DNA of 64,000 nucleotides from Clostridia bacterium (GTDB lineage Bacteria > Bacillota > Clostridia > Oscillospirales > RGIG577): positions 39,733 through 103,732 of the forward strand of contig JAFWDJ010000007.1 of assembly GCA_017513095.1 (NCBI GenBank), read 5' to 3'. Below the pieces are notes generated by a model. The model was not told the DNA's origin. It searched no databases and worked only from the letters and a program-made list of their open reading frames with translations. Below, piece after piece: positions 545 to 15,610 of the stretch (the first letter of the stretch is position 1; every line of letters starts with the position of its first letter). The translations under genes were made by a program, and so were the position numbers.

Positions 545-1930
545 TCAAGTGTGGCGCACAACTTCAAAGCGCTGAAGCGACACCTTTTCATGCGGCCCTA
601 TCCCCGCTTTCTGACGGGCAATGGCCACCTGCTCCTCCACGCTGTCCACGCCGTCCAGAGCCGGCAAAAGGAGCCCCCGCCTGCCGCCTTTCGTCACGAT
701 CACGCCGTAACGCTCCGTGTCCAGCTCTGCCTCCGAAGATATATCCTCCGGCTCTCCCAGCACGTCAACGCTTATCTCAAGAAACGGAAGCTCGTCCGGG
801 CGGATCGGGTCAAAACGCGGGTCACGGCTCGACGCGCTGACGGCGTTACTGATTATCTCCTTCGCAAGGCTTTGCTTCGTCGGGGCGATCGTGCCGATGC
901 AGCCGCGCAGTCTCCCCTGTTTGTGAATTGACACGAAAGCGCCGGCCCGCGTATCCGTAAGCTCTGCCGGCAAATCGTTCGGAACATTGATCACCTTTCC
1001 GCTGCGCACGAAGCTTTCCACCGATTCCCATGCAAGCCGCACCCACGGATCGCACGCGGCGCGCGCTTCGGTCAGCCGCTTCTCTTCTGCCTCTTGACGT
1101 TTTTTTAGGAATCTGCGGCTTTCGTCGGCTCCCGTCGGCTCAAACGTGCAAATGCCGTATCCCACGCCGGTCACATCCTCGTAGGAAAGCTTAGCCGCCT
1201 TTACTCCCGTGCCGTCCAGGGCGCCGGCCATTATGACGAAGGAACGATGTCCGCACTCCGCCGCACGATCGCAGAAGACCTCATCAAAATCGAACAGCTC
1301 GTCAAAGGCCGCCCGTCCGCATACGTCCATAACGCGGGCGTCGTACTGCGGGCCTTCCGGCGCAAAGCCGTAAGGGCCGTCGCTCTTCAGTTTATGGGAC
1401 AGGTCTCCGCTTGCGATATAGACGGCTCTGCGGCCGATATCGAAAGCGGCCTCTTTAATTATCTGCCCCAGCCTGTAATGGTCCTCGAGCGGCAGTCCGG
1501 AAAGGCCGATACGCACAATATTAAAATCGGAATAATACTGTCGTATGAAATACAGCGGCACCATGGTGCCGTGGTCCAGCTCCGGCGATCTCTGTCCGTA
1601 TGTCCCTGCGGGGAAACCCTCCGCGCTTGCAATGCGCGCAATGGTCTTTACAAGTTTTTCGTCGTATTTCTCTTTGAAGCGCACCTTAAAAGCTCCGAAC
1701 TGCGCAAAGCTGCCCTCCGCGCCTTTGCCGGGCGAGATATGGAAGTAGTCCGAATAGAGCGTGGTGTGAGGGCTTGAGATGATGACGGTCTCCGGCTTTA
1801 GCTCTGAGATCTCCTGCGCTGCGCGAATATATGCCGCCCTCGTAGTTTCTATCTGCCGCTCGCCGCCGCGTCCGACCTCGGGCACTATAAGCGGCGGATG
1901 CGGCACCATATATGCACCGATAATAGACAT
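545..1930 (-). CDS. Fusion of a LigB/Memo-like (class III extradiol dioxygenase fold) domain and an AMMECR1 domain (AmmeMemoRadiSam system protein A/B fusion)
   Basis: 461-aa ORF. The N-terminus MSIIGAYMVPHPPLIVPEVG is typical of LigB/Memo-type proteins. The C-terminal half carries the AMMECR1 signature GAFVSIHKQGRLRGCIGT. It is followed by a radical SAM gene. Confidence 0.85.
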   Translation of the reverse strand: MSIIGAYMVPHPPLIVPEVGRGGERQIETTRAAYIRAAQEISELKPETVIISSPHTTLYSDYFHISPGKGAEGSFAQFGAFKVRFKEKYDEKLVKTIARIASAEGFPAGTYGQRSPELDHGTMVPLYFIRQYYSDFNIVRIGLSGLPLEDHYRLGQIIKEAAFDIGRRAVYIASGDLSHKLKSDGPYGFAPEGPQYDARVMDVCGRAAFDELFDFDEVFCDRAAECGHRSFVIMAGALDGTGVKAAKLSYEDVTGVGYGICTFEPTGADESRRFLKKRQEAEEKRLTEARAACDPWVRLAWESVESFVRSGKVINVPNDLPAELTDTRAGAFVSIHKQGRLRGCIGTIAPTKQSLAKEIISNAVSASSRDPRFDPIRPDELPFLEISVDVLGEPEDISSEAELDTERYGVIVTKGGRRGLLLPALDGVDSVEEQVAIARQKAGIGPHEKVSLQRFEVVRHT

Positions 1931-1988
1931 ATTGTTCCTTCCTTTCCGTTTGGTATTCCGCGAATCTTCACGGTTGCTCCGTATTATT

Positions 1989-2017
1989 ATTATACCAACA
2001 TCGCGTCATATTTCATA
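1989..2017 (-). promoter_or_regulatory. Sigma-A type promoter with extended -10 (TGgTATAAT) for the AMMECR1-fusion gene
   Basis: On the minus strand: TATGAA, 17 nt, then TATAAT preceded by TGG. The -35 is weak and the extended -10 is strong. An identical arrangement sits in repeat copy B. Confidence 0.5.
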
Positions 2018-2053
2018 GCTGAAAATCGAACTTATTTGACGCGGCAATGCAGT

Positions 2054-2082
2054 AAAAAACGCACGCCTAAGCGTGCGCTTTT
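2054..2082. terminator. Bidirectional rho-independent terminator (GCACGC-CTAA-GCGTGC flanked by A-run and T-run)
   Basis: The sequence aaaaaacGCACGCctaaGCGTGCgctttt reads as a hairpin plus U-tract on both strands. It lies downstream of cas6 on the minus strand. Confidence 0.7.
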
Positions 2083-2092
2083 GGGAAGACGG

Positions 2093-2137
2093 GTGCGAAA
2101 AAGATGGATTTGCGGTTTTAATGGATGGATTGGAATA
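2093..2137. repeat. Copy X of a ~45-57-bp conserved intergenic element (more diverged copy)
   Basis: gtgcgaaaaagatggatttgcggttttaatggatggattggaata aligns with copies Y (14422-14477) and Z (18107-18163). Confidence 0.6.
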
Positions 2138-2215
2138 CACGATTTGTGATATCACATACATAAAAGAACGGCGCTTCTGTCAAGAATACCGTTCTCATTT
2201 GTTAAAACAATCGCT

Positions 2216-2947
2216 TCAAAAAACCGTTTTTGATATTGCAACGCCGCCCATTCCAAGTGCGTTTTTTATGCCGATCCCTGAACACTCGGAAAAACATATT
2301 AGTATTTTCCAAATATCTAATAATGGCGCCGAAAGCTGCGCATCGACTCGCAGATTCCCGATAAACCCCGGTATTCTGCTTTCCTTCAGCAAATATCGGG
2401 TCGTGTGCAGATTATAATCCGAAATCCGAATACCGTCCGAAAGCATGTGAAAGGCGTCTTCATCTTCCAACGGATAGGTCGGGTAGACCGCATTCCATTT
2501 TTTCAAAAGGCTTTGCAGAATCAATTCTATATCCGGATATACTGTGTATCTTCCCCTCTGCTTAAAAGCAGTGGCCGACAGGAATCGTAGAGAAAAGAAT
2601 CTTTCAGATTCTATTGCTCGGGCATTTTCTATTAGTTTCTCCGCCGCGAAAGTCTCCTTCTTCAATAGTTCAAGCCCGAGCTCTCCCGAATTAAGCGGAA
2701 GTATTTTTAAATCATCCAAAACGGCAGAAAATGCATCGCTTGCAGACCGATCAAGAAGATGTATCCTCCAAAGCACATCTGAATTATCATGATACAGACA
2801 TTGTGAGATTTGCGTCTTTCCCTGTTCATGCAGTTCTTCTGCGTATTCTTCGGATACAAGCGAGATAAGACAGCTATAGAAAGCATATGCGCGCCATGCC
2901 GGGATCTGATCGTTTGTATTCACACGAAAAACATACCTGTTGATCAT
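2216..2947 (-). CDS. cas6: Cas6 crRNA endoribonuclease
   Basis: Last gene of the csm operon. It has the C-terminal glycine-rich Cas6 motif GIGIKNALGMGGV. The start was moved to MINRYVFRV, giving an ATGA overlap with the csm5 stop. Confidence 0.8.
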   Translation of the reverse strand: MINRYVFRVNTNDQIPAWRAYAFYSCLISLVSEEYAEELHEQGKTQISQCLYHDNSDVLWRIHLLDRSASDAFSAVLDDLKILPLNSGELGLELLKKETFAAEKLIENARAIESERFFSLRFLSATAFKQRGRYTVYPDIELILQSLLKKWNAVYPTYPLEDEDAFHMLSDGIRISDYNLHTTRYLLKESRIPGFIGNLRVDAQLSAPLLDIWKILICFSECSGIGIKNALGMGGVAISKTVF

Positions 2948-4050
2948 CTGATCTGCACCCCGCAAACTCCGTAATGATACAGCTTACCCCTATATCTGCC
3001 GTACTTCATCGTATGAGGAGAAATACCGTGCTCGGAAATATCCTTTTCATGATGATGTTTGCTGAACTGTTTTGTCATGATGGTTTCCGTGTACCTCATT
3101 CCGGCATCGGTGCCGAGATACGGATATACCAGCGTTTTTGAAAAGAATCCCGCCCCTCCGCCGAGGATGAGCGCATCCTGATAAGATACGTCGAAAACGT
3201 CGGACGGGGGCTTAAACCGTGCAAGGAACGTCTTCTGATAAAACGCATCAAATCTTCTTATCATTTGCATAAGCGATTCACCCGTGAAATCAGAGGGAAG
3301 CACGGAATGATCCAAGGTGAGTCTGAACTTCAGCTCGGTACCGGGACGAATGCACTCTCTGCAGATAGGCAGCTCTTTTGGCGAGCCCTTTTCGTTCACA
3401 TCGATCTTTCCGACAAGAATCATGTCTTTATGCGAAATCGGCTCGCTGTCAGATATGGAAATACCTCGGAGAATACTGTTGACAGGATCGTTTGCTGTGT
3501 TTGAATATTTGTCCGGCTTTAATGATACCGTGTTCAGATATTCTCCCTCCAGAGTCTGCATCTGCCGGGCTCTTTTATCCTTATTCTGATGACAATCCGG
3601 CCAAATTCCTTTTTTCTCCCTAAAAATCATATCAGTAAGAATCACCGTTCGCAGCGCCCCTTTGACACTGCTGCCTGGAATATACACGCGATGACGGGAA
3701 TCTCTCATGAACGTATGGATCTCTTTAAGGCTATGGACTTCGTCGAGCGCATCGGCAGCGCTGACTTTGTAAAGGCTGAGACTGTCTTGCTCCTTCTCCG
3801 ATATGCCGCAGTTTTTAAAAAACTGCCAAAGCCGTGTATCTCCTGATAAAACAAATCTTTCATAACGATCTGCAAGCTGTTTTTTGTAAAGATATTCAAA
3901 AAACGCTTCCGTATCGATCATACTAACTGTTTTTGCGTTTGAATCAAAAAGATACTCCGTTTTTTTACGTTCGTTTCCGCTCCCGATATACAGAGGAGCG
4001 CGTGTTGTAAGGACCAGGTCATATACCGACAGATGATCAATACTTTTCAT
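2944..4050 (-). CDS. csm5: Csm5 (type III-A RAMP subunit)
   Basis: 368 aa, in the position after csm4. RAMP-like motifs are present (PLYIGSG, IPGSSVKGALRT). It has a 4-nt ATGA overlap with csm4. Confidence 0.8.
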   Translation of the reverse strand: MKSIDHLSVYDLVLTTRAPLYIGSGNERKKTEYLFDSNAKTVSMIDTEAFFEYLYKKQLADRYERFVLSGDTRLWQFFKNCGISEKEQDSLSLYKVSAADALDEVHSLKEIHTFMRDSRHRVYIPGSSVKGALRTVILTDMIFREKKGIWPDCHQNKDKRARQMQTLEGEYLNTVSLKPDKYSNTANDPVNSILRGISISDSEPISHKDMILVGKIDVNEKGSPKELPICRECIRPGTELKFRLTLDHSVLPSDFTGESLMQMIRRFDAFYQKTFLARFKPPSDVFDVSYQDALILGGGAGFFSKTLVYPYLGTDAGMRYTETIMTKQFSKHHHEKDISEHGISPHTMKYGRYRGKLYHYGVCGVQIR

Positions 4051-5021
4051 GGTCTCACCCCCAGAAAGAGCGGCGCGCTCAGACGATAAACAGGATGCTC
4101 TTCAATTTTGCCTACTTCATACAGCACGGCTTTGAATCTTTTAGGCAAAACAGAACCGGCTGACAAAAACAACTGCGTGACCTTTCGGCGATTCTCCTGC
4201 GCGCAGGCGCCGGACTGAATAAAGCCCGCACGGCGCGTCAGCATATATTCCGAATCGGGAAGCAGATCCGTCAGCTCATCCTCGGAAGGCAGACTCGTAC
4301 TCAGCAGGAGCTGTCTCTTGGCCGACGCGTCCTTCAATGCGGAAAACAGCCGCTCCGTGAACGTGTCAAAAGGCTCGTTGAGATAGATTAAATCTTCGAT
4401 ATGGAATTTCCCATAACCCGAGCTGACTTTACCGCCGATCCCGCCAAAAGAGAGTCCTTCGACCAAAGTCTGCAGATCGTCTGCCAGCAGATCTGTTTCG
4501 CAGCCGGCAAGGAACCAGAGACCGGCGTCCTCTTTGAAGTAATAAAGACCGACCTGATAGGGCAAAGCGTCCTCTCCCGGTGTTATTCTCACCTTTGTTG
4601 TGCCTGTGCTTATGCCAAATTGCGCCAGCGCTTTTTCTGCTTCATAAGGGTCGCCGCCGTAGATATAATCAAAAAAAGCGTCAAGATCATCAGCCGGGAT
4701 CCACTTCAGTTTTTTTGCTGCTTTCCGTCCGGTGATCGTTACCGTCCGATCTGTTTTTGCGGTAATGAAAGGCTTTGGCAGATAAAACGTTTCACCCATC
4801 CAGGGCATACTGTCGCTCAAAAGGATATTTCCCTCCTCCGCCTGTCGGCATAATTCCGCCAGCATATCCCGTCCGCCCAGAGCAAGCGCCGTATGACACA
4901 GAGCCGAAAACAAAGTGTCCGCACAAAAATGGTTCTCGGAACTGTACAGCGCCCCGGCGGAAAAAGAGGGACCGAAGTGGACCGCGGTGTCGAACTTCAG
5001 CTTATACAGGTAATAGTTCAT
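4047..5021 (-). CDS. csm4: Csm4 (type III-A RAMP subunit, Cas10 partner)
   Basis: 324 aa. The N-terminus MNYYLYKLKFDTAVHFG is typical of Csm4/Cmr3-like proteins. A glycine-rich FGGIGGKVSSGYG motif is present. It lies between csm3 and csm5. Confidence 0.8.
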   Translation of the reverse strand: MNYYLYKLKFDTAVHFGPSFSAGALYSSENHFCADTLFSALCHTALALGGRDMLAELCRQAEEGNILLSDSMPWMGETFYLPKPFITAKTDRTVTITGRKAAKKLKWIPADDLDAFFDYIYGGDPYEAEKALAQFGISTGTTKVRITPGEDALPYQVGLYYFKEDAGLWFLAGCETDLLADDLQTLVEGLSFGGIGGKVSSGYGKFHIEDLIYLNEPFDTFTERLFSALKDASAKRQLLLSTSLPSEDELTDLLPDSEYMLTRRAGFIQSGACAQENRRKVTQLFLSAGSVLPKRFKAVLYEVGKIEEHPVYRLSAPLFLGVRP

Positions 5022-5667
5022 ACTCTTCCACCTCTTGGAATAACGTTTTCAGTTGAAGGACGTCAAACTCCGTTTCAAAAGGCTTGATGTCAAATTTCCG
5101 CAGGCTGACACGGCCGCTGCCGCGTGTGCCGTGACCGCCGAGATAGTCAAGCTGAAGCAGCTTCATTCCCCTTGCAAGCAGAGCGAAATCTTCTTCGACC
5201 TGGGTCTCGTCCGCAATATCATATACGATTTTAACGTCAAATTCCGTTCCGCGGCTGACGCGTTCGATAAAGCGTGGATTTGCCACGCCGTCGGCGCGAT
5301 TGATACCGTTTTCCGCCTTGACTTCCGTAATCCCGACACGTCGCATTGCGTCCGCATTGGAAACAAAGCAGTCGGAAAACTGCAGTCTTGCCGCACGGAC
5401 CGGCTTAGAGCTTCCGAAAAGCCTCTTTATTCGCTCGTCATCGTCGTCGAACTTCGGCATTTTTTGAATATCTCCGCTGATGCTTCTGGCAAGCAGCGTC
5501 CTCAGCTTTCCCTTAAGACTGCTGCCCGGTACGATCGGCAGACCCGTAAAGGGATCGCGAACGACCTGACTGTCAACTGCGCCGATGGCAGAAAACGCGC
5601 TGGAATCCCCAATGTGCATTCCGGTACATACAACCAGCTTGCAGCGAATCAAAATCTTTCCATACAT
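5002..5667 (-). CDS. csm3: Csm3 (crRNA-binding backbone RAMP, target RNase)
   Basis: 221 aa with the motifs CTGMHIGDS and LPIVPGSSLKGKLRTLL and a C-terminal GGHGTRGSG glycine loop. Confidence 0.85.
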   Translation of the reverse strand: MYGKILIRCKLVVCTGMHIGDSSAFSAIGAVDSQVVRDPFTGLPIVPGSSLKGKLRTLLARSISGDIQKMPKFDDDDERIKRLFGSSKPVRAARLQFSDCFVSNADAMRRVGITEVKAENGINRADGVANPRFIERVSRGTEFDVKIVYDIADETQVEEDFALLARGMKLLQLDYLGGHGTRGSGRVSLRKFDIKPFETEFDVLQLKTLFQEVEEYELLPV

Positions 5668-5669
5668 AC

Positions 5670-6140
5670 TTAACCCTCTCTTCCGCCAATCAGATAGCGG
5701 TGGTACGCGACCAGCGCCTCCATATAATGTGCAAAGTCTATCAGCTTCTCTCTGTCGTCGCCGATACCTTTGATATATTCAAGCAGCTTCGCTTTTTTGA
5801 CGAACTCCTTTACGCTTTCTTCCCTTCCCGCTTCATATACGACACGTATGCGCATCATGGTCAGCGCGGTCCTGCTCTCCGGCAGGAGCTTCGGCTCGTC
5901 ACGCAGATTCTCTGTGTTGTATATATCCGAAACGAGACTGAAAATGTTGCGTATCTTACTCGTTGTGATCGGTTTACCTCTATTTTCTGACAAACTCCGC
6001 ATAACAGCCTCCGCGTCGTCCACATAGTCGTCCGGGAGCGAGAGCGCTTTTACCTCATCGGGCGGCGCCGGAACGCCGTTCCGTTTATCACGGTACTGCG
6101 GCTGATTCCCTTTTTGCCGAAAATTACTGTAGCTGGGCAT
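5670..6140 (-). CDS. csm2: Csm2 (type III-A small subunit)
   Basis: 156-aa helical protein located between cas10 and csm3, the canonical position and size for Csm2. Confidence 0.75.
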   Translation of the reverse strand: MPSYSNFRQKGNQPQYRDKRNGVPAPPDEVKALSLPDDYVDDAEAVMRSLSENRGKPITTSKIRNIFSLVSDIYNTENLRDEPKLLPESRTALTMMRIRVVYEAGREESVKEFVKKAKLLEYIKGIGDDREKLIDFAHYMEALVAYHRYLIGGREG

Positions 6141-8509
6141 TATTCAGTTGCCTCCTTACGATTTTTATAAACATACAAATAGATGGCGGTAATAAGACTG
6201 TTTCTGTCTTTTTCGTTAAGCGACCAGTCCATCACGTGACCGGAAAACTCCCTGTAGCGCGCATATTCGTCGCTTCCTTTGGAAGGAGACAGTCTCGCCA
6301 GCAGATAAGCAAGCCTTGCAAGCGGCACCTTCCGCTGCGGATCGTCCCTTACCTCCCTCAGCAGGTCAAGAATGCGATACAGGAACGCGGTGCCCCGCTC
6401 CGTCTTTGTGTCCTCTTTCGCCGAGAAGAAGTTCTCCAGCACGGCGAGCTTTACGCCCATGATCTCTCTTTCGAATTCTTCCCATGTATACGTATTGCCG
6501 CTTCCCTGCGCAAAAAGAGAAACGGAATCTTTGCCCGGATTCTGCTTCGCTTCGTCCTCCAGGGCCCCGGTCTCCTCCGCGGCGAGGCGTATCGGGTAAT
6601 GATCGTCAAACAGACCTACGCCGCCGCTTATTGTCAGCGCTCCGCAGGCATACTCCTTCAAAGCGCTTCGTATCCTCCGCGCAGCCTCAAGGACGTCGTT
6701 CCATGCTCCGACAAGGAACACGTCATCCCCGCCGGAATAGACTACCGCGACGGCTAAAGCACTTTGTCCTTTGTACGAGCCGTTCAGCAGCGCTTTCAGA
6801 TAAAGCTTGAAGAACAGTGACATTTGACGCGAGAACGCCGCAGTGCGGGATATCGTGACAAAACGTCGGCGCTCAGACGCCGTTGCGCCGCTTTTACTCT
6901 CAAATCCGGACACGAAAGCCTGTCCGAGATCGTCAACGTCCATCCTGCAAACGGCAAGGCGTCTTATACCCTGACTATGCATTGCAAGTTCCTCCATGGA
7001 ATTGCTTTTCGCGTAGTCGCAAACGTAGAGCCGCGTGCTGTAACGCAGTCCCGCATAGCTTACGTTCTTTGTATAGACCCGCAGAACGGGCTTTTCCTCG
7101 CGAAGCGCCCTCCGCGCGGATGGCTCATCCGTGAAAAAGAAGGCCGCCTCGCCGTAATACGTCGGAAGCGTATAGTCCGCGCCCTTTTCCTCTCCGCAAA
7201 GCACAAGATAGACGCCCGTGTTCTGAATCTTGGACGACAGACGTTCAAACGTGCTGCACCAGCGACATAAGTCGCTTCCGTCCTCCCCCCTGATAAGATG
7301 ATCGGTCCTGCCGCAGACACGGCATTCCCTTCCGGAGAGCTCCTCCTTCGTCCGATTCATTTCGATTATCCGCTGCGCCGAATAACGGTGCAGTTTTTTC
7401 TTTGCCACCGCCCGCGAGACCCTGCCGAACATGGCCTGATACGGCGAGTCTTCCGCCGGGCTGTTCGTAAGCTCATCGGCGCTGCATTCCGTATATCCGT
7501 CGGCAAGATAAAGACTGAGGCCGAACTCATCGGCAAGCCAGCCGTTGAACCGATCGTTCCATGCCTCGATCCGCCGCTTCACCTCATCCGTATTCGGTAA
7601 AAGCAGATAGCAGTGTCCGCCGCCGGAATAGAGAAGATTCGCGCGGCTGACTCCGCACGCGGTCAGAAGCTCGTCTATGTAGTGCTCCATGGTCAGCTCC
7701 AGAAAGAAGGAGCGGCTGCGAAGAGAACGAAGCGCGCCCTTCGTCGAGACCGTAAAAATGAACGTCTGTATCCCCGAAAAATCCGCCGAATACAGAAGAA
7801 AGGCCTTCTTGGCGCGAAACTCCTTTTCCTTCTCAAAAAGCGCCGTACGGTAATCCGTCACGGAGGAATCGTAAAGATACAGCGCCATGCAGGACGCCAC
7901 CGCCGCGGTGATCTTCATGTGGTCATAAAGAGACACGTCCGGGCTTTCGGCCGTGTTCGTGCTTGAAGGCACACTGCTCGTCAGACTCTCCAGCACTCCG
8001 AGAATGGAATTGACCCACTCCTCCTCGGGCGGGAGCGTACGAAGCTGTGCCTCAAGCTCACGGCAAATTTCACCGTACTGTCCCGCCGTCAGACGGATCT
8101 CACTTGAAACGGGCATGCGCAGCGTTCCGTCCTGCGGCATGGCGGAAAGCGCCAGGCCGTCATGCTCGCCGTTAAGATGGGTAAATACCGGCGAAAGCGG
8201 CAGATAGCGCTCAAAGCGCCCGCTCTCTTCGGCGGCGCGGCGGTCAGCGGCCGCGGCGATATTATCGGCAGCGTATGCAATATAGGCGAGGCTGTCCGCC
8301 GCAGGCCCCGCCTCACGCAGCTCCGAGGCATGATGCCAGCGCACGCAGTCCGGCGCTTCACCCGGCGAATAGCCCTGCCACGCCTTCTTCAGAAAAGCGT
8401 GACCCGAAGCGCTGTGATTCCCGCTCTCGCCTGCGCGAAAGCAGAGCTTTCCTACGTCGTGCATGAGACATCCGAGCGTGAGCTCCAATATTTTCTGTCT
8501 CAAAAGCAT
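6140..8509 (-). CDS. cas10: Cas10/Csm1 with N-terminal HD nuclease domain and intact GGDD cyclase motif
   Basis: 789 aa. It has an HD motif (LGCLMHDVGK, WHHAS), a zinc-finger-like CRVCG...CRWC and a Palm GGDD (VVYSGGDDVFLVGAW). Confidence 0.9.
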   Translation of the reverse strand: MLLRQKILELTLGCLMHDVGKLCFRAGESGNHSASGHAFLKKAWQGYSPGEAPDCVRWHHASELREAGPAADSLAYIAYAADNIAAAADRRAAEESGRFERYLPLSPVFTHLNGEHDGLALSAMPQDGTLRMPVSSEIRLTAGQYGEICRELEAQLRTLPPEEEWVNSILGVLESLTSSVPSSTNTAESPDVSLYDHMKITAAVASCMALYLYDSSVTDYRTALFEKEKEFRAKKAFLLYSADFSGIQTFIFTVSTKGALRSLRSRSFFLELTMEHYIDELLTACGVSRANLLYSGGGHCYLLLPNTDEVKRRIEAWNDRFNGWLADEFGLSLYLADGYTECSADELTNSPAEDSPYQAMFGRVSRAVAKKKLHRYSAQRIIEMNRTKEELSGRECRVCGRTDHLIRGEDGSDLCRWCSTFERLSSKIQNTGVYLVLCGEEKGADYTLPTYYGEAAFFFTDEPSARRALREEKPVLRVYTKNVSYAGLRYSTRLYVCDYAKSNSMEELAMHSQGIRRLAVCRMDVDDLGQAFVSGFESKSGATASERRRFVTISRTAAFSRQMSLFFKLYLKALLNGSYKGQSALAVAVVYSGGDDVFLVGAWNDVLEAARRIRSALKEYACGALTISGGVGLFDDHYPIRLAAEETGALEDEAKQNPGKDSVSLFAQGSGNTYTWEEFEREIMGVKLAVLENFFSAKEDTKTERGTAFLYRILDLLREVRDDPQRKVPLARLAYLLARLSPSKGSDEYARYREFSGHVMDWSLNEKDRNSLITAIYLYVYKNRKEATE

Positions 8510-8526
8510 CTCTCCTTTCCTTGAGA

Positions 8527-9098
8527 TTGTTCGTCCCCTTGCGGGGTGTAGATTGTTTCGAGGAACAAAAATGAAAACCTATAAGCAGTTTGAGTTTCCG
8601 TCCCCTTGCGGGGTGTAGATTGTTTCACGCGTGGGAAGCATGGGCCGAGACGTACTACGACGTTTCCGTCCCCTTGCGGGGTGTAGATTGTTTCCTGGCT
8701 ACGGAGGCGCATCTACGGCAGGCGACAGAGGGTTTCCGTCCCCTTGCGGGGTGTAGATTGTTTCAGAAGACTTATTTCCTTCCGCTTGAAATCTTCAAGT
8801 TTCCGTCCCCTTGCGGGGTGTAGATTGTTTCCAAAAAAACATATTGAAAGGATGGCAAAACATGGTTTCCGTCCCCTTGCGGGGTGTAGATTGTTTCGAA
8901 AAACTTGCGGAGGCGGCAAAGATCGACAGCGTTTCCGTCCCCTTGCGGGGTGTAGATTGTTTCTTTAAGGTAAGAGGCAACCACGCCCCCGGTCAAGGTT
9001 TCCGTCCCCTTGCGGGGTGTAGATTGTTTCAAAAGGCGTTCAGTTTCTTTTATAGGTCAAAGGCCGTTTCCGTCCCCTTGCGGGGTGTAGATTGTTTC
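8527..9098 (-). CRISPR. CRISPR array: 9 repeats of 33 nt and 8 spacers of 33-37 nt, transcribed on the minus strand
   Basis: Plus-strand repeat is GTTTCCGTCCCCTTGCGGGGTGTAGATTGTTTC, starting at 8594, 8662, 8732, 8799, 8865, 8931, 8998 and 9066. A degenerate copy at 8527 has 3 mismatches at its first 5 nt. On the minus strand the repeat ends in ACGGAAAC, a type III-like 8-nt crRNA tag. It has a palindromic core CCCCGCAAGGGG. The degenerate repeat is the cas10-proximal trailer end. Confidence 0.95.
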
Positions 9099-9145
9099 GG
9101 CAAACATTCATAAAAACACAGGCTTACAGGCCCTTTCTTTTTTAC

Positions 9146-9174
9146 ATTTTACCAAAAAATTTTCATTTTTGCAA
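9146..9174 (-). promoter_or_regulatory. CRISPR leader promoter (TTGCAA, 17 nt, TGgTAAAAT) within the A+T-rich leader 9099-9282
   Basis: The minus strand reads cTTGCAAaaatgaaaattttttggTAAAATg. Spacing is 17 nt with an extended -10 TG. It lies about 45 nt upstream of the first repeat. Confidence 0.6.
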
Positions 9175-9282
9175 GCGCAGCGTGAAAAAAGCGCGGTCTT
9201 TTTCGCTCCGGCACGTCCGATTTTTGTGCGAACGTATCATCGTATGCGGCATATTAAAGAGCTTCAGCGCCGCTGCCCGCGT

Positions 9283-10620
9283 TCAGATCACGCTTTTGAT
9301 GTATTCGATGCATTCGTCATAGACGCCGAAGATCACCGGGTCGCACGCCGGATAGCAGATTCTGATCACGTCTTCGATCTCCTTAAGAAGCTTGTCCGAA
9401 GTGATTCCACACGCGTCTTTTATCTCCTCCTCCGTTACGGTGACGAGCGTATGGGCAAGCCGATTGCGCAGATCCTTAAGTCCGGCGTAATGGGCAAAGA
9501 GCGAACGCGATCTTGGGGGAACGTCCGGGAAAAAGGAAATCAGATCGTCGCACAACATCGTGCTGGCCTCGTTTTGTTTTATTTCCCACCGTCTTTCATT
9601 CATTATCTTTTCATAATGCCGGTAGAGATCCGGACGCACGTCTTTCAGCCTGTCGGGGTAAAATAAGCGGCGGCGTTCCCGCGAGATGAATTTGTCGATC
9701 TCTCCTCCCGTCTTATTAAGCAGCCTGTCAAGCTGCGCCAGCTGCAGCGTTAGCGTAAGCGGCTCCAGATGAAGCAAAAACTGCGTATAGTTACCCGTCT
9801 TCACCAGATTCTTCATCATAAGATAATATTCGCTTGCGTCGCTGTATTCCCTTCGGCTCCCGGTTTTATAGGCATAGAGCTTAAACGGCAGACCCTTTAC
9901 TTCATCGGCAAGCTGCTTTGCGGGCTTTTCCCTGAGTCTGCTGCGTGCGGCAAGGTGCATTGTCAGCGCCCGCACGTTCTCCGGCAGGGATTCTTTCAGT
10001 TTTTCCAGCGCCTCAAAGTTGCGGTCGTCAAGCAGCGTCACGATCTGGCGTCTGAGGAACTGACGTCGTATGGCATACATCTCGGGCTCGACGCAGCGGT
10101 TCTCCGCCTCGGGCAGCTCATCCTCGTTGCATTCCAGCTCCAGCTCGATATCATACTCACTGTGATTGGCGCGTTGGCTCCTGCCCGCCCCCTTCTCGAA
10201 ATTAATGACCTGTATGCCCTTCGCGCGGTATCGTATATCCGTCACAAGCTGCGAAAGTATCATTTGCATCTGCGGAGTGCCGGAGGTGACGTTTACCAAT
10301 ATCTCGGCGTCGTGGTTCTCTCTTGCGAGCCGTGTCATTACTTCGTGGATAGGAATATCCAGCGCGTCGATATCGTGCGCATTCCTGACGCTTAGCTCCT
10401 CGTACCTAAAATCGGGCCGATAGCCGTTCCAGTGCGCCGAAATCCACTCCAGAGTTCTTTCAAACCGTCCGTCCTTCATAGCAAGCTCGCGCATCTCGGG
10501 AGTGAAGATGAGCCATGCGCTTTCCGGGCGATAGTAGCGTAAAATATGCAGCATCGGTCCGTCATGTTCACCGCGCACAGGATCAGTGGTGCCTATACAG
10601 CTCAAAAGAATCTGTTTCAT
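9283..10620 (-). CDS. csm6: Csm6 (CARF + HEPN cyclic-oligoadenylate-activated RNase)
   Basis: 445 aa. The N-terminus MKQILLSCIGTTDPVRGEHDGPMLHILRYYRPE resembles streptococcal/enterococcal Csm6 CARF domains. The C-terminal HEPN R-X4-H motif is RNRLAH. Confidence 0.8.
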   Translation of the reverse strand: MKQILLSCIGTTDPVRGEHDGPMLHILRYYRPESAWLIFTPEMRELAMKDGRFERTLEWISAHWNGYRPDFRYEELSVRNAHDIDALDIPIHEVMTRLARENHDAEILVNVTSGTPQMQMILSQLVTDIRYRAKGIQVINFEKGAGRSQRANHSEYDIELELECNEDELPEAENRCVEPEMYAIRRQFLRRQIVTLLDDRNFEALEKLKESLPENVRALTMHLAARSRLREKPAKQLADEVKGLPFKLYAYKTGSRREYSDASEYYLMMKNLVKTGNYTQFLLHLEPLTLTLQLAQLDRLLNKTGGEIDKFISRERRRLFYPDRLKDVRPDLYRHYEKIMNERRWEIKQNEASTMLCDDLISFFPDVPPRSRSLFAHYAGLKDLRNRLAHTLVTVTEEEIKDACGITSDKLLKEIEDVIRICYPACDPVIFGVYDECIEYIKSVI

Positions 10621-10678
10621 ATTGTTCCTTCCTTTCCGTTTGGTATTCCGCGAATCTTCACGGTTGCTCTGTATTATT

Positions 10679-10707
10679 ATTATACCAACCTCGCATCACA
10701 TTTCATA
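10679..10707 (-). promoter_or_regulatory. Duplicated extended -10 promoter, now upstream of csm6
   Basis: It has the same TATGAA, 17 nt, TGgTATAAT arrangement as 1989-2017. Confidence 0.5.
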
Positions 10708-10743
10708 GCAGAAAATCGAACTAATTTGCTGCGGCAATGCAGT

Positions 10744-10772
10744 AAAAAACGCACGCCTAAGCGTGCGCTTTT
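10744..10772. terminator. Bidirectional terminator (duplicate of 2054-2082)
   Basis: The hairpin GCACGC-CTAA-GCGTGC and its A/T flanks are identical to those at 2054-2082. Confidence 0.7.
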
Positions 10773-10828
10773 GGGAAAGGGGCTAAAAAGACGGATTAGA
10801 GTGAAATATCTCCACTCGCGCCCGCAGA

Positions 10829-10895
10829 CATTTCACACGCCGCAGGCGTATTTCACGCGCGAAGCGCGTTTCACAAATCCGTGAAACGGATTTAT
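10829..10895 (+). repeat. Three tandem modules, each ATTTCAC followed by a short perfect hairpin
   Basis: The modules are atttcac-ACGCCgcaGGCGT, atttcac-GCGCgaaGCGC and tttcac-AAATCCGtgaaACGGATTT. A GTGAAAT (reverse motif) sits at 10801. Confidence 0.6.
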
Positions 10896-10902
10896 TTTGT
10901 TG

Positions 10903-10948
10903 ACGCCTCCTGAGGACTGCGAGAAACAGTCTACGGGAGGCGTTTTAT
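10903..10948 (+). terminator. Long hairpin plus T-tract (plus-strand terminator with no obvious upstream gene)
   Basis: ACGCCTCC...GACTGcgagaaaCAGTC...GGAGGCGT followed by TTTTA. Confidence 0.5.
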
Positions 10949-11093
10949 TATACTATAAAAACTCAAAGCCCTTTGAAATCAAAGCGTATCGTGCAAAACA
11001 GGCAGCAGACTCTCTATCAAAATCTGCTGCCTGTTTGGGCTAACGATTATTGTTTTGACATAATCGGGGTTATCGTTAAATTTCATAACGTCA

Positions 11094-11279
11094 CTATTTG
11101 GAAAAATCAAACGAACCTTTAAAAACAGATTGCTGATGAAACTTGAGATACTCCATTCTCTTTTCGTTCATAGGTAATGGTTTTATAAATGTACCGTTCT
11201 TGTCGGCAGCGTAATCCTTCACGAGCTTCAGTATCTTGTTTTGCTCCTCCGGCAGATCGTCGGTCAGGGCGATGTTCAT
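11094..11279 (-). CDS. Small hypothetical protein (61 aa)
   Basis: The ORF has a good RBS (AAGGAG, 8 nt, then ATG at MNIALTDDLPEEQ). The N-terminus vaguely resembles the start of a receiver domain. No family was recognised. Confidence 0.35.
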   Translation of the reverse strand: MNIALTDDLPEEQNKILKLVKDYAADKNGTFIKPLPMNEKRMEYLKFHQQSVFKGSFDFSK

Positions 11280-11345
11280 CTGCGTCACTCCTTCATTGGC
11301 TATAAATAACCATAATATCATACCATATATTTTCCCCGTCCCGCA

Positions 11346-11383
11346 TGTCGATTCGGCACAGATTTCTGTCGATTCGGCACAGA
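11346..11383. repeat. Two perfect 17-bp direct repeats TGTCGATTCGGCACAGA spaced 21 bp start to start
   Basis: Copies at 11346-11362 and 11367-11383, in the divergent intergenic region between 11279 and 11420. Confidence 0.8.
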
Positions 11384-11419
11384 CCCCTTGCTAATCCCGG
11401 CGCATTCCCCTAAATTAAT

Positions 11420-11848
11420 GTGAAACGGCTGCGACTGTTATGCCTGCGGAAAGTGAGGAGATTTGCAGTGAATGCGGTGAACTATTTGAGAGATGACCTA
11501 AAATACGCTTCCACGGCGGGGATCCTGCGGGAAGAATCTGAGCGGATGGATTTGTTTCGAGACCCCCTTGACGGTCACGGGCACTACGACTATCCCTATG
11601 ATTTGGTCGTCGTGGCGCCGGAGGGCGCGAAAGGAATGAACATAGTGACGGAATGGTCGGACCGGTATCCGAACGCCGGGATCATCCGGCTCACCAGCGA
11701 CCCGGGTTTTCTCAAGGTCGCATTCAGCAAGCACCTGAGCGATTTTCTGATCTGCCCGTTCATCGAGAGCGAATTCCGTCAGTCCGTCCGAAACGTTCTC
11801 TACGGACCCTCAAGGAGGAAGCCCCGATGTATGGAGCCAGGCGGATGA
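11420..11848 (+). CDS. Hypothetical protein with a degenerate receiver-like C-terminal half (possible gene remnant)
   Basis: GTG start. The stretch DLVVVAPEG...IIRLTSDP...DFLICPF resembles a REC domain with the phospho-acceptor Asp and the conserved Lys replaced. Coding status is weak. Confidence 0.3.
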   Translation: MKRLRLLCLRKVRRFAVNAVNYLRDDLKYASTAGILREESERMDLFRDPLDGHGHYDYPYDLVVVAPEGAKGMNIVTEWSDRYPNAGIIRLTSDPGFLKVAFSKHLSDFLICPFIESEFRQSVRNVLYGPSRRKPRCMEPGG

Positions 11849-11902
11849 GACTATAGAAAAGCGGCATACCGACCCCACACAATACGAAAGGATCTGATCT
11901 GA

Positions 11903-14066
11903 ATGATGAAAACCACACTGAAATAAAGAGGAATGGCGCTGATGATAGCCCTGGCCATGTGCCTCTTTTTGGGGACGTTCATCCTCCCCCAGCAGGCCAG
12001 GGCAGAAAGCTACCAGACTTTTGACACCTCAAAGACCTAATTCATCTGGCTGAAAGAGGATAACGGGGCGATGAACTATCGCCGGAACGCCAACGGGCTC
12101 AACAAGGAGGATCATATCCACCTGGATGTCCCCTCCGGCGGCAACTGCGTGATGACCTTCAAGGACGGCGGCAGCGGCTATTACGGCATCCGGTTCGAGA
12201 GCCGGTATATTGACACGTCGGAAGACGACAGCAGCACCGGCCAATGGATCCATCAGTGGAGCGAGGATCTGAGCCGGGACAACCAGAAATTCAAATTCAT
12301 CCCGGTGGAGGGCGAGCCTGACACCTATTATATCCAGAGCAAAAAGGGCAATATCTATGTGGGACTGAAGGACAACAAAGCCGCCCAGCACACACCGCTG
12401 AAGACCGTCGACAGCAATCATAAGTGCAAATGGGTGGTGGTGCCCACGGATCGGGTGCCCTTCCCCACCGACAAATCCGAAACCTTTGACACATCCAAGC
12501 AGTACTATCTCTGGCTGAAGGAGGGCGACACCTGTACGTATGACTATCGCTGGAATGCCAACGGGACCGGCTGGAAGGATGAGATCCATCTGGACATCCC
12601 CGCCGGTGCCAATTGCAAGTTTACCTTCAAGGACATGGGCAACAACTATTATGCCATCAGGTTTGATAAACGGTATGTCGACATGAAGGACAACCTGCAG
12701 CAGTTGGGAAGGATCCTGTGGCAGTGGGAAGACGATCCGAACCAGGCCAACCGGAACTTCCGGTTCATCCCGGTGGAAGGCGAGCCCAATACGTATTACA
12801 TCCAAATCAAAAGAAACGGCTTGTATGTGGGGCTGGAAGGCTTCCAGGCTGCGGAACGATATCGGAATCTGGCGTGCGTCGATGCGGACCACGCCTGCAA
12901 ATGGGAGGTGATCTCCACCGATATGACCCAACTTGAGTCCAACGCCAAACTTCCGGGGGCCAGGGAACGCCCTGCCCAGCCGTATCCCCGTGGTGGTCTT
13001 CGACTCCGACGGCGGCAGCAGGGTGCCTTACCAGACGGTCCAAACCGGCCAATGCGCCGTGAAGCCCGGCGACCCTGTAAGAACCGGCTATACCTTCCAG
13101 GGCTGGCAGCTGAACGGCGCGGCCTATGACTTCAGCACCCCCGTCAACGAGAGCTTCACCCTGACGGCCATCTGGAAGAAGAACAGCTCCGGAGGAGGAG
13201 GAGGAGGAGGGGGAGCCGTCACCTATGCCGTCAGCCTGCCCGCGGACCTTGTGAACGCCGTCTCCCATGGAAAAATCGTCTCCAGCCATCTCAGCGCCCG
13301 GTCCGGACAGAAGGTGACCCTCACCGCAAGCCCTGACGAGGGCTGGCTGGTGTCCGGCGTCACCGTGACGGACAAGAACGGCAATGCCGTGACCGTCACG
13401 AAAAACGAAGACGGGACCTTCAGCTTCACCATGCCCTCGGGGGCTGTCACCGTGAACCCCGTCTTTGAGAAGAGCAAGGGGCCGGACGCCTCTGATGCGC
13501 CTGAGTCCTCCGATGTTCCAGACGCCGGGAAAGTCTTCGAGGATGTCCCCGAGGACGCCTGGTACCGCGACGCGGTGCAGTGGGCGGTGGAGAACGGCGT
13601 CACCACCGGCACCGACGAGACCCATTTCAGCCCCAACGCCCCCTGCACCCGCGCCCAAATGGTGACCTTCCTCTGGCGGGCCGCCGGAGAACCGGAGCCT
13701 GCGGGCGGTTCCGTGCCGTTTGGGGATATACAGGCCGGCAGCTACTATGAAAAGGCCGTAGCCTGGGCGGTGGAGAACGGCATCACCAACGGCGTGGACG
13801 AGACTCGGTTTGCCCCCGGCGACACCGTGTCCCGGGCTCAGACCGTCGCCTTCCTCTTCCGCTATGCCTTCCTCTATGCCAAGGCCGACGCGGAAGTCAC
13901 CGATGCGTTTGTGGATGTGTCCCCGGAGGCGTGGTACGCCGAGGCCGTGGCCTGGGCTGCAAAGAAGGGCATTGCTCAGGGCGTGGATGACACTCACTTT
14001 GCTCCCAACGACGACTGCGTGAGAGGACAGATCGTGACCTTCCTGTATCGCCTGATGGCCGGGTGA
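11903..14066 (+). pseudogene. Disrupted cell-surface protein: signal peptide, 2 lectin-like repeats, Flg_new (Listeria-Bacteroides) repeat, poly-Gly linker, 3 SLH domains
   Basis: The reading frame MMKTTLK*RGMALMIALAMCLFLGTFILPQQARAESYQTFDTSKT*FIWLKEDNGAMNYRRNANG has in-frame TAA stops at 11924-11926 and 12038-12040. The second TAA aligns with Y in the internal repeat FDTSKQYYLWLKEG. A frameshift near 12930-12960 joins ORFs 12071..13129 and 12933..14066. The SLH motifs are FEDVPEDAWYRDAVQWAVENGV, FGDIQAGSYYEKAVAWAVENGI and FVDVSPEAWYAEAVAWAAKKGI. Confidence 0.75.
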
Positions 14067-14136
14067 GAAGCAGCAGAGGGCTGAGATTCACCCGTAACGA
14101 TACGCCATAAAAGTTACAAAGAAAACCAAAATAAGA

Positions 14137-14171
14137 GAGACGGGATCGCTGCTGTGGCCCCGTCTCTTTTT
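14137..14171 (+). terminator. Rho-independent terminator after the SLH pseudogene
   Basis: GAGACGGG, 13 nt, CCCCGTCTC, then TTTTT. Confidence 0.7.
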
Positions 14172-14376
14172 GTCTGCAGCATAGTATTCTGTTGCCTCTT
14201 GATTAAACGGTTACACGTCCATTTATAGATGGGTAAACGGTTATCCGGATTATGGAGTGTTCAGATATGAATATTTTTATATTTTTCCGTCACGCGCTGT
14301 CTTTCGTTACAGGAATATGACCGGCCTTGGGGACGGCGTTCAGATATCAAGTCCAATGTCCTCAATAAATACAAGA

Positions 14377-14413
14377 AATCCGAACTCTGCCCTACCGGGA
14401 CAAAGTTCGGATT
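14377..14413 (-). terminator. Hairpin (AATCCGAACT...AGTTCGGATT) downstream, on the minus strand, of element Y
   Basis: 10-bp perfect stem, followed on the minus strand by a T-rich tract cttgtatttatt. Confidence 0.5.
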
Positions 14414-14421
14414 CTCAAGTG

Positions 14422-14477
14422 TGTCTATGGGGTACGTAAAAGATGGATTTGCGTTTTTGATAGATGGATTCGAACCC
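14422..14477. repeat. Copy Y of the conserved intergenic element with a tRNA T-arm-like core
   Basis: tgtctatggggtacgtaaaagatggatttgcgtttttgatagatggattcgaaccc. It differs from copy Z by 2 substitutions and 1 indel (hand alignment). It starts 13 nt after the stop codon of the minus-strand gene 14491..15102. Confidence 0.85.
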
Positions 14478-14490
14478 TCGAAGTAATGAA

Positions 14491-15102
14491 TTATTCTACG
14501 GAAATAATCAACTCTACCGCTCCATTGCCGAGGAGCGATGTAAGTTCTGAACTGTTCAGACCGTCTATTCTTCCAAGTCGAGTATACGCCCATGAATTGG
14601 AACCGTAAAACACAACGATTTGGTTGCCGGAATACAGCATGATATCACCGGCCTCGGTGGTCGTCTGCACGTCGTCTCTCGGAAGACTTGTACCGATTGG
14701 ACCGACCTGCTCGAAGCCGCCGTACATCGACATCTGTATCGCGATCGGCGCTTCCTCTGCAAACTCCCTCAGAGCTGTCACGGATTCGTTATCCTCCCAC
14801 GCGACGTATACTTCCTGCCCGTCGATTTTGAGTATCAGATCGGTTTTCACCGGAGTATCCTCCGTTTTTGGGATTGGTTGGCTGCCCGGCTCTGAGGTTA
14901 TATTCATCTGTGATTCAGTGCTTTCGGTTTTCTCGGGAAGTGCCGTGTCTTCCGCAACTGTTCCGAGCGAATCATTTACAGCTGCTGATACTGCTTCCGT
15001 CGCTTCTGTTTTCGCGCAACCGAATAAGGTAAACAGCAGCAGAAAGGCAATGCAAACCGTTACTTGCTTACGCCAGCGACTTGCCAAACCGGTATGCTTC
15101 AT
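14491..15102 (-). CDS. Cyclophilin-like-fold lipoprotein (putative)
   Basis: The start was moved to MKHTGLASRWRKQVTVCIAFLLLFTLFGC (lipobox). The C-terminal region ILKIDGQEVYVAWEDNESV...GDIMLYSGNQIVVFYGSNSW matches the cyclophilin-like domain family commonly found in LysR-linked clusters. Confidence 0.55.
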   Translation of the reverse strand: MKHTGLASRWRKQVTVCIAFLLLFTLFGCAKTEATEAVSAAVNDSLGTVAEDTALPEKTESTESQMNITSEPGSQPIPKTEDTPVKTDLILKIDGQEVYVAWEDNESVTALREFAEEAPIAIQMSMYGGFEQVGPIGTSLPRDDVQTTTEAGDIMLYSGNQIVVFYGSNSWAYTRLGRIDGLNSSELTSLLGNGAVELIISVE

Positions 15103-15610
15103 CTTGTTCCTCCTCCTTTCCGTTTGCTTCGCCCGCGTCGGAGATCCCTCCGCAGAACAGCGAGCCCGCAAGCTCCGCCTTTTCAAAGCAATCGACCCAG
15201 CCCTGCAACCCGCTGACGGCCTTTTCGGGAACGTATTCCTCGTCCTCGGTTGCGGTTGAAAGCATATATACCTTGCGGAATTTGTAGTCAGACGGATACA
15301 GCGGATTCAGACGGTCAAGCAGCGTCTTCATCTGTCCGCTCATCTCGTAGTAATAGATCGGGGTTACGAACACGAGCGTATCCGCATTCTTGACCTTTTC
15401 CGCGATCTCAACGGCGTCGTCTTTCAGCACACACTTTTGCGTCTTCTGACAGGCGAGGCAGCCGATGCAGTATCGGACCTCTTTCCCCTTCAGGCTGATG
15501 CACTCCACATCATGCCCGGCTTCCTTTGCGCCCCGAATCAGTTCCTCTGCCAGTCGGTCTGAATTGCTCTTTACCCGCAGGCTTGTTGTGATCACAATTA
15601 CCTTGCTCAT
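15068..15610 (-). CDS. Flavodoxin-like NAD(P)H-dependent FMN reductase / iron-sulfur flavoprotein
   Basis: MSKVIVITTSLRVKSNSDRLAEE...CIGCLACQKTQKCVLKDD is typical of the FMN-reductase fold with a Cys cluster. Confidence 0.7.
   Translation of the reverse strand: MSKVIVITTSLRVKSNSDRLAEELIRGAKEAGHDVECISLKGKEVRYCIGCLACQKTQKCVLKDDAVEIAEKVKNADTLVFVTPIYYYEMSGQMKTLLDRLNPLYPSDYKFRKVYMLSTATEDEEYVPEKAVSGLQGWVDCFEKAELAGSLFCGGISDAGEANGKEEEQDEAYRFGKSLA

Follow-up and report, generated by a model that had tools for sequence, protein, structure and literature searches.

Mobile elements may carry a copy of the end of the gene that they target, as phage 21 and e14 do in icd. CRISPR-Cas systems can be cargo of mobile elements: the staphylococcal cassette chromosome (SCC) element SCCmec V(5C2&5) carries CRISPR-Cas of type III-A and excises between its repeats (10.1101/2023.03.19.533347), and SCC and the Enterococcus cassette chromosome (ECC) have attachment (att) repeats of ~50 bp with multiple attR sites (PMC6222049). 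The tandem ssrA islands of Dehalococcoides are associated with a CcrB-family serine recombinase, DsiB, and include integrase-less members that are mobilizable in cis (PMC3146451). In homology-facilitated illegitimate recombination (HFIR), or Campbell-type integration, foreign DNA is inserted beside a homologous anchor through two junctions, one of them homologous and the other illegitimate (PMC3240628). Here, we describe a CRISPR-Cas cassette of type III-A from Clostridia bacterium (Oscillospirales, RGIG577; assembly GCA_017513095.1) that resembles each of these systems in part. The cassette lies in a stretch of 64,000 nucleotides (contig JAFWDJ010000007.1, positions 39,733 to 103,732; hereafter the window) between two direct copies of a host regulatory module, one of which serves a cas gene.

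A repeat search of the window recovered the direct repeat pair at 1928-2087 (copy A) and 10618-10777 (copy B), 160 nt long and 95% identical. By direct count, the copies match at 152 of 160 positions and differ at 8 (1980, 2000, 2005, 2009, 2020, 2033, 2039, and 2040), with mismatch-free runs of 52 nt at 1928-1979, covering the ribosome-binding site (RBS) and the 5′ untranslated region (UTR), and of 47 nt at 2041-2087, covering a terminator hairpin. Weaker homology with one 3-nt indel continues to 2110 and 10797, giving 183 nt at 91.8% identity. Chance is ruled out for this repeat, since a random pair of 160 nt would show at most 8 mismatches with a probability of ~3 × 10−80. Each copy stops at the start codon (ATG) of a gene on the minus strand, copy A at that of a LigB/Memo and AMMECR1 fusion (545-1930) and copy B at that of csm6 (9283-10620). 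The initial annotation had described gap-free direct repeats of ~160 bp with 8 mismatches that begin at the start codons of these two genes, and we recovered the same pair, the same number of mismatches, and the same start codons. Between the copies lie, in the gene order given there, cas6, csm5, csm4, csm3, csm2, cas10, an array of 9 repeats, and csm6. The same two-copy arrangement is present in L001, a contig from an independent metagenome assembly with 7 single-nucleotide polymorphisms relative to the window over 8.6 kb, as well as in L092 and, in part, in L094. Because the arrangement recurs in independent assemblies, an assembly artifact is excluded.

Scans for further copies gave little. 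The 64-kb window contains two full copies of the module and no third, a scan of JGI metagenomes returned one match, which was the orthologous single copy of a related locus (L091), and IMG/VR viral contigs returned none. These counts do not fit a dispersed promoter or a repeat of the repetitive extragenic palindromic (REP) type, and the possibility that the module is a multicopy promoter, raised in the initial annotation as a reason for doubt, was not borne out. Neither do the repeats resemble the target-site duplication of a transposon (2 to 15 bp), given their length of 160 to 183 bp; the repeat search of the window found no inverted repeats at the cassette ends, and there was no transposase among the Pfam matches of the window genes.

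Next, we looked into the module in relatives. The fusion gene behind copy A (545-1930, minus strand) matches PF02900 and PF01871 as well as TIGR04335/04336 (AmmeMemoRadiSam system protein A/B) and opens the host operon, in which the radical SAM gene comes next, past the window start, as the neighbor in L001 and L082 indicates. A sister lineage sampled four times (L082, L083, L084, and L086; 90% amino acid identity) has a single module, in the order smpB, transfer-messenger RNA (tmRNA) gene, ~290 nt, one module, AMMECR1, and radical SAM. A third lineage (L091; 92% nucleotide identity) has a single module before AMMECR1 and no cassette, and ssrA was not found in the 2.8 kb upstream of that module. 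Copy A is collinear with the single copies of L082 (to window position 2111) and L091 (to 2110). Across 80 GTDB loci with AMMECR1 homologs (at most 83% identity), none had cas genes beside the homolog, and the closest of the 80 (L002; 83% amino acid identity) has one copy, whose alignment with copy A spans the RBS, UTR, and −10 region. Judged from these alignments, the module is the native regulatory region of the AmmeMemoRadiSam operon and is single copy in relatives.

The unoccupied sites in L082-L086 and L091, each with one att copy, belong to other species-level lineages (88 to 92% nucleotide identity). Thus, the one-copy relatives that the initial annotation called for do exist, but no same-species empty site was seen among three assemblies, all of which carry the cassette. 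Its further proposal, that recombination between the copies would delete the cassette cleanly and restore a single promoter, agrees with the architecture of L091, which the recombination product would equal. Exact-protein lookups with the AMMECR1 protein, P0121, and a 75-aa form of a small open reading frame (ORF) gave no match; a lookup with SmpB gave one contig, which stops just past the tmRNA gene.

Each copy of the module holds a full set of predicted expression signals on the minus strand. Copy A (1928-2111, of which 1928-2087 is the 160-nt core repeat and the remainder the extended repeat) comprises an RBS (1935-1942), a 5′ UTR with a hairpin, a TG-extended −10 element (TATAAT, 1989-1994), a −35-like ATGAAA (2011-2016), the terminator hairpin (2060-2078), and an att-type core (2091-2111). 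In copy B (10618-10797, with the 160-nt repeat at 10618-10777 and the extended repeat to 10797), which is fused at the ATG to csm6, the parts are offset by +8690: RBS at 10625-10632, −10 element at 10679-10684, hairpin at 10750-10768, and a degenerate native-type core at 10780-10797. The RBS reads GGAAGGAA in both, and both have a predicted extended −10 element (TGGTATAAT) with a weak −35 (ATGAAA) and a 5′ UTR of ~52 nt. The terminator hairpin has a 12-bp stem (−19.3 kcal/mol) and, on the minus strand, a U6 run behind it. The RBS, 5′ UTR, extended −10 element, and hairpin of the initial annotation are therefore found in both copies, but two of its details need amendment: the terminator is only half supported as a bidirectional one because its plus-strand reading has just four U after the stem and a z-score of 0.1, and the promoters of A and B are not identical, differing at three spacer positions. 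A riboswitch or known RNA inside the module was considered and rejected, since neither copy has an Rfam match and the hairpin in the 5′ UTR has a z-score of only about −1.7 to −1.9, which is weak. Elsewhere in the window, CAAACGGAAAGGAggAGGAACAAgATG stands before the start of a cyclophilin-like gene (ATG at 15102), at 15100-15126 (minus strand); this stretch is identical to the module RBS stretch at 24/27 positions and lies inside the 3′ end of an overlapping FMN-reductase gene.

The cassette itself is of type III-A. Its effector operon (2216-8509, minus strand) consists of cas6 (2216-2965), csm5 (2944-4050), csm4 (4047-5021), csm3 (5002-5667), csm2 (5670-6140), and cas10 (6140-8509), and Pfam matches (PF22335/PF18211/PF20824, PF03750, PF03787, PF17953, and PF10040) identify the cas10 palm domains, csm2-5, and cas6. 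The ancillary gene csm6 (9283-10620, minus strand) encodes a nuclease with CARF and HEPN domains (PF22208 and PF09659; TIGR02672, 278 bits) and has its native start codon joined to copy B; it adjoins the CRISPR array (8527-9098, minus strand), which has 9 repeats (GAAACAATCTACACCCCGCAAGGGGACGGAAAC), the last of them degenerate, and 8 spacers. None of the 8 spacers matched the sequences in the analysis. The cassette does not contain cas1-cas2, which are optional for the subtype, and all ORFs in 2112-10617 are csm genes, cas6, or csm6. The array lies between csm6 and cas10 in the same transcriptional direction, with 18 nt from the last repeat to the cas10 ATG (region 8509-8560); the effector operon thus has no room for a promoter of its own. 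The array leader (9099-9282, minus strand) contains a TG-extended promoter-like site (TTGCAA-17-TAAAAT, 9174-9146). Because of the position of the cas10 ATG, the cas10-cas6 operon probably relies on the leader promoter or on read-through from csm6, and not simply on the module.

Related cassettes with the same gene order (L087-L089) are sited in other defense islands, and their csm6 genes are 63 to 65% identical to the one in the window. Homology among these genes begins exactly at ATGAAACAG (the ATG), and their upstream DNA is unrelated, which indicates that the native 5′ region of csm6 was replaced, to the nucleotide, by the host module. Beside these cassettes, L087 has SIR2 and HEPN/nucleotidyltransferase genes (2237-3816), and L088 has a ThiF/UQ_con/JAB cluster for ubiquitin-like conjugation (615-6101). 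In L001, the region that corresponds to window positions 8527-9098 (L001 2265-2506) keeps only the terminal degenerate CRISPR repeat; this reduced array reflects either collapse by the assembler or true loss through repeat recombination.

We then compared the window with the sister lineage beyond the module. Homology with L082 stops at the tmRNA 3′ end (window position 20672; the ssrA gene lies at 20674-21028, minus strand) and resumes at 2111, the distal edge of extended repeat A. The 18.6 kb at 2112-20671 is therefore extra relative to this type of empty site, with copy B inside it. The interval consists of four segments (20671-18164, 18106-14478, 14421-10798, and 10617-2112), and from ssrA toward AMMECR1 it holds a truncated recombinase, a KilA-N protein, a 413-aa ORF, a LysR gene, a hydrolase, an FMN reductase, and the cyclophilin-like gene, and then surface proteins with SLH and ricin domains, small ORFs, a Gut-1 RNA motif, copy B, and the cassette. 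By these boundaries, the cassette is the AMMECR1-proximal segment of a composite island and not a stand-alone insertion. The initial annotation had read the 8.5-kb block as a discrete insertion that duplicated or captured a host module; the host origin of the module and the replacement of the csm6 5′ region stand, and the stand-alone block does not.

The truncated large serine recombinase (19996-20421, minus strand; 141 aa) is the first ORF after ssrA and is followed by the KilA-N gene. It matches phrog_95 (integrase; 1.5 × 10−18), carries PF07508 in the annotation of L092, and is 47% identical to a large serine recombinase of L095, an IMG/VR contig. It retains the recombinase domain without the catalytic domain and is a decayed integration module. 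Pfam gave no recombinase or integrase in 2112-10617, and the 141-aa fragment is the only one in the whole interval. The 413-aa ORF was considered as a hidden integrase and rejected, as it has no Pfam, PHROG, or NCBIfam support. When the island segments and the ~57-nt element described below were compared by BLAST with phage and plasmid collections, we obtained a generic alpha/beta hydrolase match or nothing. Within the island, the ricin-type lectin gene (12071-13129, plus strand) has an internal tandem duplication of 465 to 471 bp (12017-12922; 73 to 81% identical), and an ORF with SLH and InlB repeats (12933-14066) adjoins and overlaps it in another frame.

The segment boundaries share a short sequence. 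A 21-nt core, AAATCC(A/G)TCTTTT(T)CG(C/T)ACCC, occurs at 2091-2111, 14430-14450, and 18115-18135, all on the minus strand and all inside the island interval, against a chance expectation of 0.01 in the window. Two of these cores belong to elements of ~57 nt with the structure GGGTTCGAAnCCATCTATCAAAAAC, core, CATAGACA: element x (14422-14477, minus strand), which lies 14 nt past the stop of the cyclophilin-like gene, and element y (18107-18163, minus strand), which is 95% identical to x and lies 14 nt past the stop of the 413-aa ORF, each at a segment boundary. The third abuts an element-type left half-site, P-left (2112-2140, minus strand), which is identical to the same part of x and y at 21/27 positions. 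Thus, the copy A junction runs from a diverged P-left through the core (2091-2111) into the native module, as in an attR-like hybrid, and elements y and x, copy A, and the core of copy B are all on the minus strand within 2091-18163. A native-type core only (AATCCGTCTTT...) is found in copy B and in the single-copy modules of L082 and L091. A core is present at both ends of the cassette (2091-2111 and, degenerate, 10780-10797). The left arm of copy B, AGATATTTCACTCT, is also found at the empty site of L091, where homology continues to 10811, and the left arm AGATATTTCACTYT is likewise common to B and L091. Read as att sites, A resembles a hybrid of the attR type, and B resembles an unoccupied site.

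The ~57-nt element was found beyond the window as well, with copies in L093 (10574-10630), L095 (4250-4305), and L096 (7075-7132) in addition to x and y. It contains two AATCCATCT direct repeats and the T-loop-like GGTTCGAA, lies 14 to 25 nt past the stop of the last cargo gene of island segments, and is likely the att site of an undescribed ssrA-linked island family. In L095, the element has three large serine recombinase genes on one side and a tyrosine integrase gene on the other. In L096, also an IMG/VR contig, it lies 25 nt past a STAND-like NTPase gene (4009-7050; 1013 aa, AAA/NB-ARC/TPR), which is island cargo, and closes a segment of ~7 kb that starts right after a tmRNA 3′ end and includes a serine recombinase fragment; the ends of this segment are related by a 29-nt imperfect inverted repeat. 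Since the distal boundary of the repeat coincides with an att-type site common to the segments and to recombinase-bearing elements, part of the repeat would reflect site-directed accretion of islands. Three other sources of the short elements were tried and rejected: duplication of the tmRNA 3′ end (the alignment matches only the T-loop-like GGTTCGAA), tRNA fragments (ARAGORN finds the tmRNA only, and the stems are unpaired), and integron-like attC sites (there is neither IntI nor an attC-type hairpin).

Directly distal to copy B lies a Gut-1 RNA motif (RF01706; 10825-10902, minus strand), which scored 74.1 bits against an Rfam gathering threshold of 50 and has three hairpins spaced by GUGAAAU. 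The motif is also present in L001 (648-723) and twice in L093 (10378-10455, plus strand, and 10473-10561, minus strand). L093, a contig of the same species from a different sample, matches the window without differences from smpB to ~10829 and then continues into a second, inverted Gut-1, a fourth att-type element, a terminator, and the contig end. L001, from the same sample, rejoins the window at 10856; ahead of that point lie a tRNA-Tyr, a tRNA fragment that is split, and a Gut-1 motif whose 5′ part differs. The strain breakpoints at ~10829 and 10856 both fall inside Gut-1, which shows that the DNA just distal to copy B is in flux; the cassette and both module copies are constant in all three assemblies. 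The position of the breakpoints suggests that Gut-1 has a DNA-level or recombination role rather than, or besides, that of a small RNA. In L001, the tRNA-Tyr(GTA) (390-471) is followed by a terminator and by a second tRNA 3′ end (GAATCCACCTTCCCCCA) at 520-640, whose T-loop is split by ~85 nt of GC-rich hairpin sequence; this copy resembles either an att-like duplication or a tRNA fragment with an insertion in it.

From this junction anatomy, we infer how the duplication arose. Any model would need one illegitimate junction, between the module ATG and the csm6 ATG, with 3 nt of microhomology. The reading that we favor, to which we give about an even chance of being correct, is an origin of the HFIR type, with one illegitimate join at the start codons and one homologous exchange. 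The donor would be a related strain in which the cassette was already sited immediately upstream of P-left, core, module, and AMMECR1, and the recipient an unoccupied, L091-like site into which the cassette was brought, or brought again. The right-hand exchange would be homologous, within the module or the AMMECR1 region, and the left-hand join illegitimate, at the shared ATG, between the recipient AMMECR1 start and the donor csm6 start; an equivalent route would be aberrant excision followed by Campbell-type reintegration. As an outcome, B would be the recipient copy with its native left arm and A the donor copy with an element-type left arm. This model explains two patterns. First, A and B are 5% divergent, compared with 0.08% between strains across the cassette. 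Second, at 4 of the 8 A/B differences, A has the L091 state and B the L082 state, with a fifth site of this pattern outside the 160 nt (2094); at 2005, one of the 8, B alone matches L082. Since these states match those of other lineages, the differences between the copies are not private mutations.

Several observations weigh against an origin of this type. A and B share 7 to 10 derived states relative to both outgroups, including the changes that give rise to a 6-bp UTR hairpin, and their mismatches are very unevenly spread (0 in 52 nt, 8 in 61 nt, and 0 in 47 nt), so that the donor must have been very close or A and B must have undergone gene conversion with each other later on; both patterns fit a duplication in situ equally well. 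A genome in the donor state, with a cassette that has its own csm6 promoter beside a single module, was not found, and the three assemblies, all with the cassette, yielded neither a same-species empty site nor a circular or excision junction. Selection has to be invoked because the ATG-exact join rests on 3 nt of microhomology. The att interpretation draws on two viral contigs, as the interval holds no intact recombinase. The activities of the promoter, transcription start site, and terminator are predictions, and a terminator scan did not call the module hairpin, probably because A/T runs lengthen the stem. We also tried the outgroup states as a guide to the ancestral copy and rejected them, as they form a mosaic (A with B at 10 sites, A with L091 and B with L082 at 5, and the third split at 0).

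A secondary duplication in situ is possible, but we consider it doubtful. Here, an att-integrated cassette with its own csm6 promoter would have come first, and the module would have been copied before csm6 later in the same lineage, either by tandem duplication of the csm6-to-module stretch through illegitimate exchange at the start codons, with the first copy then excised or deleted, or by ectopic gene conversion, with priming at the 21-nt core that both sites share and resolution at the ATG. The 7 to 10 derived substitutions common to A and B relative to L091 and L082 (those in the UTR hairpin at 1959-1961, 1972, and 1974 among them), the distal repeat boundary at the shared core, and the 52-nt and 47-nt runs without mismatch are what such an event would leave. 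What it accounts for poorly are the differences themselves: mutations that arose after the duplication would be unlikely to match other lineages at 4 of 8 sites (A with L091 and B with L082) and, for B, L082 at 2005, and a divergence of 5% between the copies is at odds with 0.08% between strains. It would also take extra steps to restore an intact native site, since B has the L091-type left arm.

An extended att identity is another reading, which we regard as unlikely. The cassette would now or formerly be cis-mobilizable, with a circle that carries P-left, core, and module before csm6, so that site-specific recombination at the core automatically gives two modules, like islands that carry a copy of the tRNA or tmRNA end that they split. 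Consistent with this are the att-type core at the distal edge of both copies, the hybrid A junction, and the association of related elements with recombinases and ssrA; integrase-less, cis-mobilizable members are known in ssrA island arrays (PMC3146451), and, as a rule, islands restore their target by means of a copy that they carry themselves (PMC4383910). Against it, 2112-10617 contains no recombinase and the interval only a truncated one, and integration at the core leaves the host promoter intact, so that there is nothing to restore. In the element's other copies (x, y, z, L095, and L096), what follows is CATAGACA-type sequence and not a module, the JGI metagenome and IMG/VR scans gave no other instance, and an earlier illegitimate capture event would still be required.

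In a bolder version, which we think improbable, the ssrA-AMMECR1 interval would be an undescribed SCC-like "cassette chromosome" of gut Clostridia, with the 183-bp repeat as a programmed att of extended identity and Gut-1 as a DNA-level element. If this were true, recombinase-mobilized segments that end in the ~57-nt att and are bordered by Gut-1 arrays would gather type III-A and STAND NTPase cargo; the att would supply the first gene of an incoming, otherwise promoterless cassette with promoter, UTR, and RBS from the host, while the host operon kept its copy; and Gut-1 would be a recombination or structural DNA element rather than a small RNA. Finally, the view that there is no insertion signature at all, only a dispersed promoter or REP element, chance similarity, or an artifact of a metagenome-assembled genome, has in its favor that the RBS-proximal 24 to 27 nt recur before the cyclophilin-like gene, so that short signal pieces can recur, but is very improbable given a chance level of ~3 × 10−80, two full copies in 64 kb with one orthologous metagenome match and none in viral contigs, and the same arrangement in independent assemblies.

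Returning to the favored HFIR-type reading, the arrangement would have consequences for expression and stability. Copy B would give csm6 the promoter, UTR, and RBS of a housekeeping gene and may add read-through into the array and cas10-cas6. The hairpin of copy A, 138 nt past the cas6 stop codon, appears placed to end cas transcription, and the promoter of copy A would keep the host operon expressed, so that the insertion may be transcriptionally insulated. RecA-mediated exchange in the 52-nt or 47-nt run would delete 8.7 kb and leave an L091-like site, which makes loss of the cassette by this route plausible. The locus may thus serve as a natural example of an imported defense operon wired into host transcription through a duplicated promoter, UTR, and RBS. 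Its repeats would form a built-in recombinational route to cassette loss, which bears on the trade-offs between cost and autoimmunity of type III systems. The comparison further reveals an integration hotspot in ruminant-gut Clostridia, located between ssrA and the AmmeMemoRadiSam operon and containing a conserved att-type element, and places the orphan Gut-1 motif at recombination breakpoints. Current views are not overturned by these results, whose value lies in a documented mechanism and a lead.

The locus has its closest parallels in ssrA-linked and SCC-type islands. As in Dehalococcoides, segments are stacked downstream of a single tmRNA gene with same-orientation repeats between them, a serine-recombinase module lies beside ssrA, some members lack an integrase (being cis-mobilizable or fixed), and cargo varies between strains. 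The Dehalococcoides repeat, however, is a 20-bp copy of the ssrA 3′ end, whereas the ~57-nt element here is unrelated to that end except for the T-loop-like GGTTCGAA; the innermost repeats here are 160 to 183 bp of host promoter that end at start codons, and the recombinase is a fragment. SCCmec and ECC share with our locus the III-A csm cargo in a cassette array at one att site and direct att repeats of ~50 bp with multiple attR sites; large serine recombinases mobilize them, and deletion or excision between repeats removes CRISPR-Cas. SCC integrates in the rlmH 3′ end, has short att repeats, and has been shown experimentally to excise, whereas the cassette here has no ccr genes and has a promoter/terminator module as its repeat.

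The likeness would extend to mechanism. In HFIR, host sequence can end up duplicated on both sides of an insert (PMC3240628), as it has here; the process is known from laboratory transformation and conjugation assays with short inserts, whereas ours is read from the junction anatomy of an 8.7-kb cassette. Islands at tRNA and tmRNA genes (PMC4383910) and prophages such as phage 21 and e14 have direct repeats of tens to ~160 bp, since they carry host-like sequence beside the crossover, and the repeat ends at a gene boundary. In these elements, the repeats restore the 3′ end of a disrupted gene, whereas here the host gene is intact and the extra copy serves the 5′ end of csm6. The initial annotation had taken the arrangement to be undescribed for type III loci. 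Direct repeats around III-A islands were already known from SCCmec, but a repeat of promoter length that ends at two start codons is unusual, and a limited literature search found no description of one. Thus, the locus belongs to a known kind, in which tandem, recombinase-associated islands at hotspots of the ssrA or SCC type carry CRISPR-Cas as cargo bounded by direct repeats; what is unusual is its innermost repeat, which spans a complete host regulatory module and ends exactly at two start codons, with one copy serving a cas gene.

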